UHGV virus genome: UHGV-0359675
DNA length: 13,650 nucleotides
Source of the DNA: a virus
Reading direction: 5' to 3' (one strand)
Shown here: piece by piece, positions 8,104-13,650 of the stretch
Numbering within the stretch: position 1 is the stretch's first letter
Layout of the letters: each line of letters opens with the position of its first letter
The notes under the pieces: generated by a model
What the model was told of the DNA's origin: nothing
The model's input: only the letters and a program-made list of their open reading frames with translations
Databases searched by the model: none
Translations under genes and position numbers: made by a program

Positions 8104-8754
8104 ATGAAAACTCAATTGATGGGAGAGCGCATTCGCGCTCGGAGAAAAGAACTCAAGATCAGGCAGGCCGCACTTGGAAAGATGGTCGGCGTGTCTAATG
8201 TTGCCATATCTCAGTGGGAACGCTCTGAGACAGAGCCAAATGGAGAGAATCTTCTCGCCCTGGCTAATGCGTTGAAGTGTTCCCCTGACTATCTGATGAA
8301 AGGAGAGGAAAGTCTTTCAAACATTGCCTATCACAGTAGGCATGATCCAAGAGGGTCATACCCTCTGATTAGCTGGGTGAGCGCAGGATGCTGGATGGAA
8401 GCTGTAGAACCATATCATAAGCGTGCAATAGATAACTGGTACGATACAACCGTAGACTGTTCAGAAGATTCGTTTTGGTTGGACGTGAAGGGAGACTCAA
8501 TGACGGCTCCGGCCGGTCTCAGTATCCCTGAAGGAATGATAATACTCGTCGATCCTGAAGTAGAGCCGCGTAACGGGAAACTGGTAGTTGCAAAGCTCGA
8601 AGGAGAAAACGAGGCAACTTTCAAGAAGTTAGTTATTGATGCAGGCAGGAAGTTTCTAAAACCACTTAACCCACAATATCCGATGATCGAGATCAACGGA
8701 AACTGCAAAATCATCGGCGTAGTTGTCGATGCAAAACTAGCAAACCTTCCATAA
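8104..8754 (+). CDS. c2: Prophage repressor C2/CI (HTH N-terminal domain, LexA-like S24 autocleavage C-terminal domain)
   Basis: 216 aa, near-identical to recalled P22 C2 (MxTQLMGERIRARRK.LKIRQAALGKMVGVSNVAISQWERSETEPNGENLLAL...). GDSM serine motif and the downstream Lys are present. Confidence 0.9.
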   Translation: MKTQLMGERIRARRKELKIRQAALGKMVGVSNVAISQWERSETEPNGENLLALANALKCSPDYLMKGEESLSNIAYHSRHDPRGSYPLISWVSAGCWMEAVEPYHKRAIDNWYDTTVDCSEDSFWLDVKGDSMTAPAGLSIPEGMIILVDPEVEPRNGKLVVAKLEGENEATFKKLVIDAGRKFLKPLNPQYPMIEINGNCKIIGVVVDAKLANLP

Positions 8755-8821: not shown

Positions 8822-8875
8822 ATTTAAGTTTTCTTCAAAAATACTCTTGACCATTAATTAAAGAGATCTTAAATT
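8822..8875 (+). promoter_or_regulatory. OL operators and pL promoter
   Basis: Operator-like 18-mers ATTTAAGTTTTCTTCAAA (8822-8839) and ATTAAAGAGATCTTAAAT (8857-8874). -35 TTGACC (8847-8852), 17-nt spacer, -10 TAAATT (8870-8875), directed toward nutL and N. Confidence 0.55.
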
Positions 8876-8920
8876 TAAGCCATCAGCAGGACGCTGGAAG
8901 CCAAACGGAAAAGATTGGCA

Positions 8921-8962
8921 GGCTCTTTAACATTGATGGGATTGTCCCGCCGAAATGCGGGA
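8921..8962 (+). promoter_or_regulatory. nutL: boxA (GGCTCTTTAACA) plus boxB hairpin
   Basis: boxA-like GGCTCTTTAACA at 8921-8932. boxB TCCCGC-cgaaat-GCGGGA at 8945-8962, sharing the 19-nt core TCCCGCCGAAATGCGGGAA with nutR in transcript sense. Confidence 0.6.
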
Positions 8963-9275
8963 ACCAAAGAGTAGTTGGCTTTGGGGTGACGTGAAGTGCA
9001 GCTGCACGACGGCAACCGGAAGATAAGCACCCGGCGCGTCACCGCCAAAGTCAATTCCATAGGCGTTATGCAGCCGCCACCATATTCAAGAAAGCTGCAC
9101 AAGAGGTAGGAGGATTTATGTGAATACTTACATTCAATTGAGAGATTAATTAAATAGAACTGATCGAGCAGAGTCCATAAAGGCTCATAAATGCTCTTCC
9201 ATCCCCGTCTAATTGGCGGGGAAGGAAACCACTTTGTAATAAAAAAATTCCAAAGTTGTTTCATCGGAGGTCAAC

Positions 9276-9575
9276 ATGACAGTAGTCATTACATATCTGG
9301 CTGACGATAACGCCAGAAATCGCCGCAGAGCACGCAGACAGGCTCAACGTGAACAGGCAATGCAAGAACAGCGACTGGCGCGAAAGATTGCGCTAAAGCT
9401 CTCTGGTTGCGTCAGAGCAGACAAAGCAGCATCACTCGGAAGCCTTCGCTGCAAGAAGGCAGAAGAAGTCGAGAGTAAACAGAATCGTATTTACTACCGC
9501 AAGCCACGCAGTGAAATGGGGGTGACTTGTGTTGGTCGCCAGAAAATGAAATTAGGAAGCAAACCACTTATTTGA
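9276..9575 (+). CDS. N: Antitermination protein N (lambda/21-type C terminus, distinct arginine-rich motif)
   Basis: 99 aa. N-terminal arginine-rich motif NARNRRRARRQAQREQ. C-terminal ...NRIYYRKPRSEMGVTCVGRQKMKLGSKPLI parallels recalled lambda N (...RTWYSKPGERGITCSGRQKIKGKSIPLI). Shine-Dalgarno GGAGG upstream. Confidence 0.8.
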   Translation: MTVVITYLADDNARNRRRARRQAQREQAMQEQRLARKIALKLSGCVRADKAASLGSLRCKKAEEVESKQNRIYYRKPRSEMGVTCVGRQKMKLGSKPLI

Positions 9576-9583
9576 GGTGATAT

Positions 9584-9670
9584 ATGGAAGAAGAATTTGA
9601 AGAGTTCGAAGAGCATCCGCAGGATGTGATGGAACAATACCAGGACTATCCTTATGACTACGACTATTGA
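9584..9670 (+). CDS. Candidate 28-aa highly acidic micro-protein (MEEEFEEFEEHPQDVMEQYQDYPYDYDY)
   Basis: Strong Shine-Dalgarno GAGGTG 5 nt upstream, overlapping the N stop. Hand-translated; below the 60-aa ORF-track cutoff. The same 17-nt initiation region recurs at 9904-9920. Confidence 0.35.
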   Translation: MEEEFEEFEEHPQDVMEQYQDYPYDYDY

Positions 9671-9854
9671 TAAGAATCAATGGTGTGGACAATTCAAGCG
9701 ATGCAATGGATGCAAGCTGCAATCGGAATGTATGGTTAAGCCTGAAGAAATGTTTCCTGTAATGGAAGATGGGAAATATGTCGATAAATGGGCAATACGA
9801 ACGACGGCAATGATTGCCAGAGAACTTAGTAAACAGAATAACAAGGCTGCCTGA
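9654..9854 (+). CDS. ral: Restriction-alleviation protein Ral-like
   Basis: 66 aa MTTTIDKNQWCGQFKRCNGCKLQSECMVKPEEMFPVMEDGKYVDKWAIRTTAMIARELSKQNNKAA matches my recollection of lambda Ral (66 aa). Position just downstream of N in the pL operon fits. Confidence 0.55.
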   Translation: MTTTIDKNQWCGQFKRCNGCKLQSECMVKPEEMFPVMEDGKYVDKWAIRTTAMIARELSKQNNKAA

Positions 9855-9912
9855 TGGTGGCCTTTATTTTTGTCCGTAAATAATTTCATGCTTATTACAA
9901 TCAAGGTGATAT

Positions 9913-10335
9913 ATGGAAGAACAAGCAAACAAGATTCTCGTAGAACTTCTGCAAAAAGCCAGTAATGGAATAGACGCGGCTGTTTCATTTAGCCAGGCAC
10001 AGATTCCTGATGTTGTTCGTCAGTTGCTAACATGGAGTTTTGTCCATAGCGCACTTTTCCAAGTGGCTGGGTTGTTGCTTTTAATTGCAGCAATGAAACT
10101 TCCTAGTTTTGCAAGAACGGCAAGAAATAATGGCGAGAGATGGACGTCTTTAGATGGATGTCCAAACGATAGATATTTTATATCTTCGTTTTATTACGAT
10201 ATATGCACTGTATTTGCTCCTATATTTGGCTCAATTATTGGCGTTTTAATTATTGCCTTCAATTTCGAATGGTTGAAGATTTGGCTTGCACCTAAGTTAT
10301 TCCTAATTGAATATGCAGCATCATTGGTTAAGTAA
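9913..10335 (+). CDS. Hypothetical 140-aa membrane protein with two predicted TM helices; possible superinfection-exclusion function (positional inference only)
   Basis: Hydrophobic segments SFVHSALFQVAGLLLLIAAMKL and FAPIFGSIIGVLIIAFNFEWLKIW. Follows ral, where lambda and P22 carry sieB. An intrinsic terminator follows at 10340-10366. Confidence 0.5.
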   Translation: MEEQANKILVELLQKASNGIDAAVSFSQAQIPDVVRQLLTWSFVHSALFQVAGLLLLIAAMKLPSFARTARNNGERWTSLDGCPNDRYFISSFYYDICTVFAPIFGSIIGVLIIAFNFEWLKIWLAPKLFLIEYAASLVK

Positions 10336-10339
10336 TTTC

Positions 10340-10366
10340 AGGCCGCATAGTCGGCCTTTATTTTTG
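10340..10366 (+). terminator. Intrinsic terminator after the membrane-protein gene
   Basis: AGGCCG-catagt-CGGCCT followed by TTATTTTTGG. Confidence 0.55.
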
Positions 10367-10484
10367 GCATAAACAACAGAATAAACACTGCACTGTGTAT
10401 TCATTCCAACGAGTGAATACACGGAGCAATGTCGCTCGTAACTAAACAGGAGCCGACTTGTTCTGATTGTTGGAAATCTTCTTT

Positions 10485-10512
10485 GCCCTCCAGTGTGAGG
10501 GCAATTTTTTTT
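10485..10512 (+). terminator. Intrinsic terminator immediately upstream of the 10525 gene start
   Basis: GCCCTC-cagtgt-GAGGGC followed by AATTTTTTTT, ending 13 nt before the GGAGG Shine-Dalgarno and ATG at 10525. Confidence 0.6.
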
Positions 10513-10524
10513 GATGGAGGATAT

Positions 10525-10875
10525 ATGAGTGAAGTAACAGATTTAGTTGTTATTGAAAAAGCAAATGCAATGACTGTATTTCAGTCTGCCGACCAGATTG
10601 AAGAAATTCTCCAAAAGGTTGAACGTGAAGTTATGTCATTTGTGCCTGATATCACAACGGCAAAGGGCAGAAAGGAGATCGCTTCTCTGGCGTATAAAGT
10701 TGCGCAGACGAAAACATATCTCGATGGTCTTGGCAAAGACCTTGTTGCTGAACTGAAGGAAATTCCAAAGCTAATTGATGCCAACCGCAAGACAGTGCGC
10801 GATCGCCTTGATGAACTGAAAGCCAAGGCGCGCCAGCCTCTTACTGATTATGAGGAAGAATCAGGCGCGGATTAA
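10525..10875 (+). CDS. Hypothetical 116-aa protein (predicted helical/coiled-coil)
   Basis: Start chosen at the internal Met with Shine-Dalgarno GGAGG (MSEVTDLVVIEKANAMTVF...). The upstream in-frame extension of the track ORF (from 10429) runs through the terminator and is rejected. Confidence 0.55.
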   Translation: MSEVTDLVVIEKANAMTVFQSADQIEEILQKVEREVMSFVPDITTAKGRKEIASLAYKVAQTKTYLDGLGKDLVAELKEIPKLIDANRKTVRDRLDELKAKARQPLTDYEEESGAD

Positions 10876-11494
10876 AGCCGAAGAAGAAGCTAAGGCAGCA
10901 GCTGAAGCTCTCGCAAAGCAAATTGAGTCTGACCATGAAATAGCGATTTTGATGGATCGCGAATTTGACCGCCAAAGAGAAGAGGCAAGACTCAAAGCGG
11001 AGCAGGAAAAGCGAGAGCATGAAGAACGATTAAAAAGAGAAGCTGAAGAGAAAGCCAGAGCAGAAGCCGAAGCAAAGGCAAAAGCCGAAATTGAAGCAGC
11101 AGCAAGGCGAGAAGCAGAAGCTAAGGCCGCAGCGGAACGTGCAGAGCGTGAACGCATTGAAGCCGAGCAACGAGCACAGCGCGAAGCAAAAGAGGCAGCA
11201 GAACGAGCTGAAAGAGAAAAGCAGGCAGCAATTGAAGCAGAACGCAGAAAAGCACAGGAGGAGGCTGAACGAATCCGTCGCGAGGCTGAAGCAAAAGAGC
11301 AAGCCAGAATAGCAGAAGAAAAAAGAATCAAGGACGAAGAAGAGCGTAGAGCAAAGGATAAAGCTCACCGGAAAGAAGTAAATAACAAAATACTTGCTGA
11401 CCTTATCAAGGTTGGCGCATCAGAAGATGTTGCTAAAAATATCATAACAGCCATCGTAAAAGGCGAAGTATTCGCAACAAAAATAACCTACTAA
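10850..11494 (+). CDS. Hypothetical 214-aa protein with a long E/R/K/A-rich predicted single alpha-helix or coiled-coil and a short C-terminal domain
   Basis: Overlaps the preceding ORF by 26 nt in the +1 frame with no obvious Shine-Dalgarno. About 150 residues of EAEAKAKAE / REAEAKAAAERAERE-type repeats. The start is uncertain; this may be a frameshifted continuation of the upstream ORF. Confidence 0.5.
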   Translation: MRKNQARIKAEEEAKAAAEALAKQIESDHEIAILMDREFDRQREEARLKAEQEKREHEERLKREAEEKARAEAEAKAKAEIEAAARREAEAKAAAERAERERIEAEQRAQREAKEAAERAEREKQAAIEAERRKAQEEAERIRREAEAKEQARIAEEKRIKDEEERRAKDKAHRKEVNNKILADLIKVGASEDVAKNIITAIVKGEVFATKITY

Positions 11495-11519
11495 TAAAAC
11501 CAACATAAGGAACCACCCA

Positions 11520-13650
<2,131 letters not shown>

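Follow-up and report, generated by a model that had tools for sequence, protein, structure and literature searches.

A single inserted T splits an Sf6 gene 33-type member of the phrog_1376 family at a UTI89/CUS-3-type prophage locus

Results

One gene broken by one extra base

The locus at positions 10525–11494 of the window (the whole 13,650-nt stretch of virus genome UHGV-0359675 that was analysed) is of the UTI89/CUS-3 type and, with a probability that we place at about 0.9, is a single gene, Sf6 gene 33, broken by one extra T and hence a pseudogene allele. ORF calling on the window gave an ORF1 from an ATG at 10525 to a TAA ending at 10875 (116 aa) and an ORF2 from an ATG at 10850 to a TAA ending at 11494 (214 aa), both on the + strand and with ORF2 in the +1 frame relative to ORF1. 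An earlier note on this DNA had described the pair as an uncharacterised two-ORF module; re-reading the coordinates reproduced the 26-nt overlap (10850–10875) and the frame that it gave.

Comparison with relatives placed the inserted base at 10861 (+ strand; GAAGAA[T]CAGGCG), outside any homopolymer run. In alignments T10861 was present in CUS-3 and absent in Sf6, HK544 and phiv205-1, which read straight through. Once the base was removed, the predicted 322-aa product was identical to Sf6 gp33, and DNA identity to Sf6 was 98.5% over 1121 nt. In its present form ORF1 (10525–10875, ECRS218_0048 in CUS-3) therefore consists of 112 native residues followed by the out-of-frame tail SGAD and a stop. 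ORF2 as called (10850–11494, ECRS218_0049 in CUS-3) contains native coding sequence only from 10862 to 11494 (residues 113–322 and the stop codon), its codons 1–4 (MRKN) being out-of-frame readings of native codons.

A search for single-ORF homologues of about 330 aa, which the earlier note had proposed, found intact 322-aa genes in Sf6 and HK544, where the region is annotated as a single ORF, and in 68 of 80 close IMG/VR loci. The intact junction occurred in at least 355 complete E. coli genomes and the insertion allele in 38 of 5426; among the 30 matches listed, insertion-allele copies were 100% identical over 1121 nt. RefSeq labels UTI89_RS13095 'frameshifted', whereas the CUS-3 record annotates both halves as separate CDS.

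Single-base indels are the commonest assembly error, and such an error would mean that the source strain really carries GAAGAACAGG, without T10861, within 10840–10880. This is extremely improbable, because the same T, outside any homopolymer run, is found in separately sequenced CUS-3 (strain RS218), and many laboratories contributed the 38 complete genomes that also carry it. The split is neither chance nor a read error.

It is also very unlikely that the locus is a real two-gene module, in which both ORFs give separate functional proteins and ribosomes reach ORF2 through coupling or re-initiation in the overlap. The in-frame ORF2 ATG at 10850 does precede the ORF1 stop, and the two halves have not only their own CDS entries in CUS-3 but also their own PHROG families, 17211 and 21365. 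However, the lengths of these profiles, exactly 116 and 214 positions, show that they were built from the frameshift allele itself, and they look like artefacts of that one frameshift. The split was confined to one near-identical allele (the 38 genomes), every divergent relative examined had one ORF, and joining the halves gives the exact sequence of Sf6 gp33. The ORF2 ATG lies 23 nt upstream of the ORF1 stop and, as had been noticed earlier, lacks a Shine–Dalgarno sequence: the preceding bases CAGCCTCTTACTGATT hold no purine-rich site. Of the two readings offered in the earlier note, coupling or one split gene, the second is thus the one that stood, and the 'two-ORF module' itself gave way to one intact ORF in relatives and a split limited to one allele.

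Programmed +1 ribosomal frameshifting could in principle restore the full-length protein, since no sequence is lost where the two frames meet. We give this hardly any credence: judged by direct reading against established knowledge of +1 frameshift sites, GAA GAA UCA GGC has neither a slippery or stall-prone context nor, at the point of shift, a rare or stop codon, and the insertion is missing from all relatives outside one clone, leaving the supposed site without evolutionary conservation. A coupled or programmed-frameshift pair was accordingly rejected.

On its sequence, the window copy is best described as a pseudogene allele and not as a functional member of the phrog_1376 family: where that family has a single polypeptide of about 245–440 aa, the window frames encode 116 and 214 aa. 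From the native start, translation would give no more than the N-terminal domain of 112 residues with four aberrant residues attached, and ORF2, without a ribosome-binding site, would probably be translated weakly, if at all. ORF2 might still be expressed at a low level, and the 116-aa fragment might keep some activity; CUS-3 evidently manages without the gene. The pseudogene is recent, clone-specific and already flagged by RefSeq. What had been put forward as the best candidate for an undescribed accessory system is a pseudogene allele of a widespread and catalogued family.

Layout of the locus

A scan of the sequence found a terminator-like hairpin (an 8-bp stem followed by T8; 10483–10504, + strand) directly 5′ of the gene, matching the position of the tL2A-like terminator annotated in Sf6. 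No promoter-like site was found by scanning the + strand from 9200 to 11700. Because of the hairpin directly upstream, the gene is probably reached only by N-antiterminated read-through from PL. A Shine–Dalgarno sequence, GGAGG (10516–10520, + strand), is separated by 4 nt from the true start codon at 10525, a start consistent with the Sf6, HK544 and CUS-3 annotations.

The next gene is cIII (11519–11650, + strand; Pfam Lambda_CIII, E 4e-15), just downstream as the earlier note had it. In annotated relatives cIII is followed by kil, two small ORFs and then erf, which lies ∼0.55 kb downstream of the gene in UTI89, Sf6, HK544 and CUS-3. In the window IS100 interrupts kil at 11697 and the sequence ends inside the IS, so the recombination genes are beyond view.

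A widespread and already catalogued family

The Sf6 gene 33 protein (AAQ12223), HK544_037 and the E. coli 'TolA' cluster P0068 represent the same gene as the window's. The slot in Sf6 and HK544, N-ral-orf-X-cIII-kil-...-erf, is also the one that the window's gene occupies; the difference is that Sf6 and HK544 carry one intact ORF and the window a frameshifted copy. The intact protein matched phrog_1376 over its full length (E 2e-110), the window's 10525–10860 matched at E 2.3e-52, and ORF2 matched profile positions 161–362 at E 2.7e-52.

Our first scan for related loci gave near-identical E. coli prophages only. The N-terminal domain was matched by 5636 clusters at 50% identity (5020 at E≤1e-10), and among the 150 matches listed of these clusters the matched domain was always N-terminal. 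In 37 diverse representatives that we aligned, it began one protein in all 37, and the C-terminal domain was found in 35.

No Pfam family matched the two halves, the intact Sf6 protein (E≤10) or the 37 diverse members. Sequence-profile searches of the PDB returned low-complexity noise only, Foldseek against the PDB gave nothing below E 4.9, and a fold search of BFVD gave family members only. Among the PADLOC defence-system models the only match was LmuB at a meaningless E of 0.03. Searches of the literature for Sf6 gene 33 and for recombineering helpers of the Gam type turned up a single source on the phrog_1376 family, a preprint on Pseudomonas phage D3.

The family is thus already catalogued as phrog_1376, and phenotypes have been published for D3 gp53, one of its members (PMC12407980). 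That neither ORF had been recognised was a fair statement for a family without assigned biochemistry. The earlier note had named relatives with one intact gene of known function as grounds for abandoning its reading; the intact gene was found, the known function was not. Its size (over 5000 clusters at 50% identity), the lack of a Pfam model, an operon position like that of lambda gam and the recent Gabija result for one member make the family worth specialist attention.

Architecture of the intact protein

The intact 322-aa protein is cytoplasmic, very elongated and three-part. Its first part is a conserved helical domain (native codons 1–112; 10525–10860, + strand; AlphaFold2 pLDDT 81–95). 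Alignments gave the family motif VPDxxTxKGRxxIASxAxKVAxSKTxLDxxGKxL...R..LD.....RxPL..WE, and all invariant residues of the domain are present in the window. For a typical member, modelled with AlphaFold2 over residues 1–216, the prediction was a long antiparallel helical hairpin (pLDDT 94, pTM 0.66).

The structure prediction suggested by the earlier note was run on the repaired E. coli allele and reached an overall pLDDT of 84.9. It contained one long helix over residues 157–295 (pLDDT 88–96 for 181–295); the only low-confidence break, between two long helices, fell at residues 143–156, with pLDDT<50 over 142–157. A short motif, DHEIAILMDREFD (residues 136–148; 10931–10969, + strand), common to Enterobacter, Rhodospirillales and other members, overlaps the start of this break, at the point where most family members carry a helical middle domain of ∼60 aa.

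The central E/R/K/A-rich helix (residues 157–283; 10994–11374, + strand) and the C-terminal domain are encoded in the window at 10994–11494 in the shifted frame. In the repaired protein the 127 helix residues are 87% E/K/R/A (60% E/K/R and 27% A), with seven large hydrophobics, 51 i/i+4 pairs of opposite charge and a net charge of 0. There was no heptad pattern in this stretch, large hydrophobics occupying a/d positions at a frequency of 0.11. Composition and AlphaFold2 thus predict a helix of ∼130–140 residues that is of the single-alpha-helix (SAH) type rather than a coiled coil; residues 157–283 would span about 19 nm if fully helical. The single-alpha-helix character that the earlier note saw here is supported, while its estimate of about 150 residues was too long and the 'coiled-coil' of its title does not apply.

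The DNA encoding the helix consists of degenerate GAA/GCN direct repeats, and recombination between repeats varies the helix length between alleles. One pair of direct-repeat copies (10880–10906 and 11111–11137, + strand) is 89% identical and 231 nt or 77 codons apart, and recombination within this pair accounts for the common 245-aa in-frame deletion allele; a comparison of allele sequences P0166, P0085 and P0070 showed other lengths from 275 to 333 aa.

The protein ends in a conserved mini-domain (residues 284–322, HRKEVNNKILADLIKVGASEDVAKNIITAIVKGEVFATKITY, and the stop codon; 11375–11494, + strand; pLDDT 84–91) with the consensus HRxxINxxxxxLxxxGxxExxAxxxxxAIxxGxIPxVxIxY across the family. 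This is the small C-terminal domain that had been noted from the window, and its conservation in the alignment bears the observation out.

Names and homologies that failed

Many database matches carry the names 'cell envelope biogenesis protein TolA' or 'colicin import membrane protein' (RefSeq and IMG), and the E/K/A-rich helix does resemble TolA domain II in composition. Nevertheless there is next to no chance of a TolA-like envelope or colicin-import protein. The TIGR02794 tolA_full model scored 9.2 bits against a cut-off of 59.45, no Pfam domain matched, those of TolA included, and no stretch of hydrophobic or small residues exceeded six, so that a membrane anchor and a signal peptide are both missing. 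Neither of the conserved terminal domains has any relation to TolA, and the genomic context is one of phage recombination genes. Judged from these sequence features, 'TolA' is an artefact of composition, and both names are wrong on many entries, including a 471-sequence E. coli cluster.

In Firmicutes phages, genes for DUF1351, Sipho_Gp157 and DUF2483 are uncharacterised neighbours of RecT, Erf or Sak4 genes, lying upstream of erf-ssb and sak4 and adjoining recT/red-beta, in a slot otherwise held by Mu-Gam-like genes (PMC8093625). Homology to DUF1351 (PF07083) was rejected: Sf6 gp33 gave no match at E≤10 and the 37 members gave none at E≤0.01, and the family profile aligned to gp48 of phi9805, a bona fide PF07083 member (E 3e-34), with an hhalign probability of 0.1 despite the same genomic slot. 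The same Pfam scans found no match to Sipho_Gp157 or DUF2483. Neither sequence homology (Pfam scans) nor fold similarity (structure searches) to Gam, Mu Gam or Abc2 was detectable. Photorhabdus Plu2934 ('Plu-gamma'), a recombineering enhancer, was also discarded as a member: its cloning primer encodes MNPYAVYD, which over these eight residues is unlike the family N-terminus and which we take to resemble the start of lambda GamS.

Gene neighbourhood across the family

In most lineages the gene is the first in an operon in which it is followed by an annealing protein (RecT, ERF or Sak4) and a YqaJ/PD-(D/E)XK exonuclease. Of 11 distant members, 9 had a gene for an annealing protein and/or an exonuclease within three genes. 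At 51 of 65 loci of the D3-like clade the next gene downstream, typically 7–10 nt away, encoded RecT (24), ERF (24) or AAA_24 (3), and the second gene downstream encoded YqaJ at 29 of 52 loci; in D3 itself the order is orf53-erf-exo.

At loci of E. coli-type phages, abc2 (anti-RecBCD) co-occurred in 64 of 69 cases and lambda Gam, with GamS as the query, in none of the 69. That the gene simply substitutes for a missing RecBCD inhibitor in E. coli phages was rejected on this count, as Abc2 is also present in those 64 loci.

D3 gp53 and Gabija

D3 gp53 (orf53, AAF80812) is the only experimentally studied member of the family. Its entire length aligned to the family profile (hhalign probability 100, E 2.6e-78), it matched PHROG 1376 at E 2e-130, and its N-terminal domain was 55% identical by BLASTP; the C-terminal mini-domain aligned with high confidence.

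In P. aeruginosa, D3 deletions escape Gabija, and escape is RecBCD-dependent (PMC12407980). With D3 orf53 supplied by itself, escape phages, including ones without exo-erf, are again targeted by Gabija, so that gp53 licenses restriction independently, like Exo-Erf and Mu Gam (PMC12407980). It also sensitises a transduced plasmid to Gabija and cross-complements a JBD30 escape phage, as does either the Mu-type Gam or the GemA of JBD30 itself (PMC12407980). The authors leave gp53 out of their DNA-end-binding systems (PMC12407980).

Discussion

By analogy with D3 gp53, we tentatively propose, at somewhat short of even odds, that the intact protein keeps a host enzyme off phage DNA by acting at DNA ends or on RecBCD. 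It would act early in infection, and holding the host enzyme off the phage DNA would let the phage's own recombination or circularisation proceed. The same action would make such phages visible to Gabija.

A structural role, in place of antagonism of RecBCD or at DNA ends, seems doubtful. The protein would then be a tether or 'ruler' in the phage recombination complex: the SAH would set the spacing at which the N- and C-terminal domains link exonuclease, annealing protein, SSB or a pair of DNA ends, and Gabija would be licensed indirectly, through enhanced end processing. A layout in which two conserved end domains flank a spacer whose length varies would suit such a part, as would the tight coupling (7–10-nt gaps) to three unrelated annealing-protein families and to YqaJ/DUF3799 exonucleases; the co-occurrence of Abc2 in E. 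coli phages, moreover, argues against redundancy with a RecBCD modifier. On the other hand, D3 orf53 licenses Gabija by itself, both in escape phages without exo-erf and from a plasmid, and a partner-specific bridge would not be expected beside three non-homologous annealing-protein families.

The proposal of action at DNA ends or on RecBCD can be extended to the whole family, which may form an unrecognised, widespread 'gam-slot' class that controls the access of RecBCD, and hence of Gabija, to phage DNA ends; we regard this as more speculative and rather unlikely as it stands. Members of such a class, encoded before RecT, ERF or Sak4 in Proteobacterial phages, may be ruler-like, with two end domains on an ER/K SAH, and their mechanism would be unrelated to those of lambda Gam, Mu Gam and Abc2. 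If this were true, recurrent inactivation in prophages (the T insertion and other IMG/VR truncations) could reflect selection to escape Gabija-like defences. A biochemical function would fill a gap in how Gam-less phages manage RecBCD and DNA ends, and the family might supply a helper protein for recombineering systems.

ER/K SAH domains are found in proteins such as myosin VI, myosin X and caldesmon. The helix described here shares with these domains and with TolA domain II an E/K/R/A-rich, overall uncharged composition with dense i/i+4 salt bridges; they too lack a hydrophobic seam, but the resemblance is physical only, and SAH behaviour is a prediction for the present protein. In gene order, lambda gam holds the same first position in gam-bet-exo, although the phrog_1376 protein is about three times longer than lambda Gam, and phi9805 shows the order DUF1351-Sak4-SSB, a slot that DUF1351 shares with the phrog_1376 family. 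Mu-type Gam gives the same genetic readout as D3 gp53 in the Gabija system. D3 orf53, like the E. coli-type gene, is an early-left-operon gene upstream of erf. However, D3 gp53 has an extra middle domain of ∼60 aa and its gene directly adjoins erf-exo, whereas in the E. coli subfamily the middle domain is missing and cIII and kil lie between the gene and erf; for these reasons the transfer of function from D3 to the E. coli protein is uncertain.

One gene interrupted by a single inserted base

The split gene occupies 10525-11494 on the + strand as two overlapping frames. ORF1 (10525-10875, 116 aa) has GGAGG four bases 5' of its ATG. ORF2 (10850-11494, 214 aa) lies in the +1 frame, overlaps ORF1 by 26 nt and has no Shine-Dalgarno-like site ahead of it, as an earlier note had described. 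When the junction was aligned with Sf6, HK544, phiv205-1 and CUS-3, the sole difference that matters was GAAGAATCAGGCG in the window and CUS-3 versus GAAGAACAGGCG in Sf6, HK544 and phiv205-1. Sf6 gene 33 and HK544_037 are each one 322-aa ORF, the kind of single-ORF homologue that the note had proposed looking for. With the inserted base, T10861, removed, the window encodes 322 aa that match Sf6 gp33 exactly; the lesion is therefore recent, with no other decay. The window copy is a disrupted Sf6 gene 33 allele; among characterised proteins, gp53 of Pseudomonas phage D3 is its closest relative.

With 40-nt probes in which each 28-mer crosses the junction, 38 of 5426 complete E. coli genomes (all UTI89/NU14/IHE3034/BEN2908 type) scored for the insertion allele and at least 355 for the intact junction. 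The gene is repeatedly lost in prophages, though 68 of 80 close IMG/VR loci carried the intact 322-aa form; one carried the T10861 allele. Independent disruptions, truncations among them, were seen in a few of these loci (L081, L083 with a 130-aa truncation, and L088-L090).

T10861 is not a sequencing error, as it lies outside any homopolymer and many independent assemblies share it. Neither translational coupling nor programmed frameshifting is supported, since none of the diverged relatives keeps two frames, the junction lacks a slippery site and no ribosome-binding site precedes ORF2. Of the two origins that the note had offered, a frameshift-split single gene is thus borne out by the 322-aa ORFs of Sf6 and HK544, and coupling is not. 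The proposed two-ORF module comes down to a frameshift, confined to one clone, in a gene that is known and catalogued; the finding is ordinary in itself and already flagged by RefSeq, where UTI89_RS13095 of UTI89 is a frameshifted pseudogene. PHROGs 17211 (window 10525-10872) and 21365 (10850-11491) have profiles exactly 116 and 214 positions long and are apparently database artefacts built from the frameshift allele. PADLOC returned nothing useful for the gene. The expected product is the N-terminal 112 residues plus SGAD only, so the gene's mechanism is moot within the window.

Prophage setting and expression

The window represents the early region of a P22-like/lambdoid prophage. Over 10400-11520 its sequence matches phage CUS-3 and E. 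coli UTI89, NU14, IHE3034, UM146 and APEC O18 at 100% identity. On the + strand, the leftward early operon extends from cI (8104-8754) through N (9276-9575), ral (9654-9854; Pfam Ral, E 4e-48), a 140-aa ORF (9913-10335), the split gene and cIII (11519-11650; Pfam Lambda_CIII, E 4e-15) to a kil remnant and an IS21-family element. The 140-aa ORF is a homologue of Sf6 gene 34 with hydrophobic segments; it belongs to phrog_3054 (unknown function) and had no match in Pfam, NCBIfam or PADLOC. Between cI and N, at the lambda rexAB position, a 129-aa ORF on the minus strand (8875-9264; UTI89_RS28850 in UTI89, annotated hypothetical) had no Pfam match and a PHROG match spanning only 20 residues. It could be a lysogen-expressed moron.

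Three terminator-like hairpins lie on the + strand within 660 bp, all ahead of the split gene: after ral (9843-9864), after the 140-aa ORF, which has its own (10340-10357), and just 5' of the split gene (10483-10504). Scanning both strands returned six such sites versus 2.9 ± 1.8 in shuffled sequences, and no promoter-like site on the + strand in 9200-11700. Its expression should therefore depend on N antitermination, and the hairpin set is consistent with strict dependence. A longer ORF listed from 10429 crosses the 10483-10504 hairpin and is an artefact.

The prophage kil gene is disrupted after ~20 codons by IS100 (IS21 family; region 11635-13650, junction 11696/11697), which carries istA (11783-12805) and istB (12802-13584); identity to CUS-3 ends at 11696. 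Expression of the downstream rec genes is possibly disrupted too. The kil::IS100 junction was found in none of the 5426 genomes, placing the window strain or variant outside that set.

A large family with a predicted single alpha-helix

Source names for the intact protein (TolA, colicin import membrane protein) reflect composition only and are wrong: the TIGR02794 score, 9.2 bits, falls short of the 59.45 cut-off, and the protein lacks a hydrophobic anchor. Pfam gave nothing for the intact protein or 37 diverse relatives, and PHROGs assign the gene to phrog_1376, function unknown. Searching 1.84 billion representative proteins with an N-terminal-domain profile matched 5636 clusters at E <= 0.001, of which 5020 passed E <= 1e-10. 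In the best 150 matches the domain was always N-terminal, in proteins mostly of 280-440 aa. Alignment of the 37 members revealed a conserved N-terminal domain (motif VPDxxTxKGRxxIASxAxKVAxSKTxLDxxGKxL...RxPL..WE), an additional helical middle domain in most, an E/R/K/A helix of variable length and a C-terminal mini-domain of ~40 residues conserved in 35. In the enterobacterial subfamily a short DHEIAILMDREFD-type motif takes the place of the middle domain.

In the joined protein, E/K/R/A make up 87% of residues 157-283, a stretch with only seven large hydrophobics, zero net charge, 51 i/i+4 opposite-charge pairs and no heptad seam. By sequence, these features typify an ER/K single alpha-helix, as the earlier note had suggested, and not the coiled coil it had also named. 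AlphaFold2 likewise predicts one helix at 157-295 (pLDDT 88-96 at 181-295) within an all-helical rod (E. coli allele, pLDDT 84.9) whose sole break is at residues 143-156. For a typical member the first 216 residues were confidently modelled (pLDDT 94, pTM 0.66) as a long antiparallel helical hairpin capped by short helices. Fold searches returned only family members in BFVD and nothing specific in the PDB (Foldseek, best E 4.9), so structure assigns no function.

Helix length varies within E. coli, giving alleles of 245-333 aa; in-frame natural alleles include 245, 275, 287, 300-309 and 333 aa (P0166, P0085 and P0070 among them). The coding DNA consists of degenerate GAA/GCN direct repeats, and the common 245-aa allele, present on many contigs, corresponds to recombination between repeats 77 codons apart (10880-10906 and 11111-11137). 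It lacks those 77 codons, including the DHEIAILMDREFD motif, and helix length and motif may thus be dispensable or tunable.

Association with recombination operons and a possible function

For eleven distant members inspected on their own contigs, genes for an annealing protein (RecT, ERF or AAA_24/Sak4), an exonuclease or both lay no more than three genes away in nine cases. Seven of the nine directly adjoin the exonuclease gene (four YqaJ/DUF3799 above the Pfam cut-off, two PHROG 'exonuclease', one sub-threshold DUF3799). In the D3-like clade (78 IMG/VR loci) the next gene downstream encoded RecT (24), ERF (24) or AAA_24 (3) in 51/65, usually after a 7-10 nt gap, and the second a YqaJ exonuclease in 29/52. 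The typical operon order is thus X - annealing protein - exonuclease, X being the family gene. In E. coli phages X lies ~0.55 kb from erf, with cIII, kil and two small ORFs between.

The Sf6 annotation records similarity to D3 orf53. The 354-aa product of orf53 aligned with the family profile along its whole length (hhalign probability 100, E 2.6e-78), showed 55% identity in the N-terminal domain and matched phrog_1376 (E 2e-130). In D3, erf (orf52) and a YqaJ exonuclease gene (orf51) follow orf53 directly. D3 escapes the Gabija defence system only via deletion of orf51-52, orf53 and orf66, and orf53 alone restores targeting (Hong et al., bioRxiv 2025, PMC12407980). It also made a transduced plasmid Gabija-sensitive and cross-complemented a JBD30 escape phage, whose escape JBD30's own Mu-type Gam or GemA likewise complements (PMC12407980). 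Escape requires RecBCD; the authors' model has Gabija attacking linear DNA from which RecBCD is excluded, and gives gp53 no biochemical activity (PMC12407980).

From the gene's gam-like place in the operon and the genetic results with D3, we tentatively suggest, at a probability of roughly 0.35-0.4, that the intact protein would act early in infection at phage DNA ends or on RecBCD, favouring the phage's own recombination or circularisation. Pfam scans and PDB Foldseek gave no homology to Gam, Mu Gam or Abc2, and abc2 lies alongside the gene in 64/69 E. coli-type loci, so it is not just a stand-in for a missing inhibitor. A structural ruler or tether inside the recombination complex is a somewhat less likely rival, against which counts the ability of D3 orf53 to act alone. 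The missing homology, the presence of abc2 and the lack of the middle domain in the E. coli subfamily all call for caution on the DNA-end or RecBCD role. The Gabija-licensing phenotype of one member, recently reported, makes that role testable. Beyond it, the lasting points are the TolA misnomer and a very large family without a Pfam model that is tied to phage recombination operons.

The Photorhabdus Plu2934 ('Plu-gamma') cloning primer encodes MNPYAVYD, eight residues unlike the family N-terminus; Plu2934 appears to be a true lambda-Gam relative, judged from those eight residues against the GamS sequence. DUF1351 is not homologous to the family (hhalign probability 0.1 versus a bona fide member). 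Its genes share the slot, however: in Firmicutes phages DUF1351, Sipho_Gp157, DUF2483 and Mu-Gam-like genes adjoin annealing-protein genes (PMC8093625), phi9805 being an example. The order X - annealing protein - exonuclease is that of lambda gam-bet-exo, and it is kept across three unrelated annealing-protein families.
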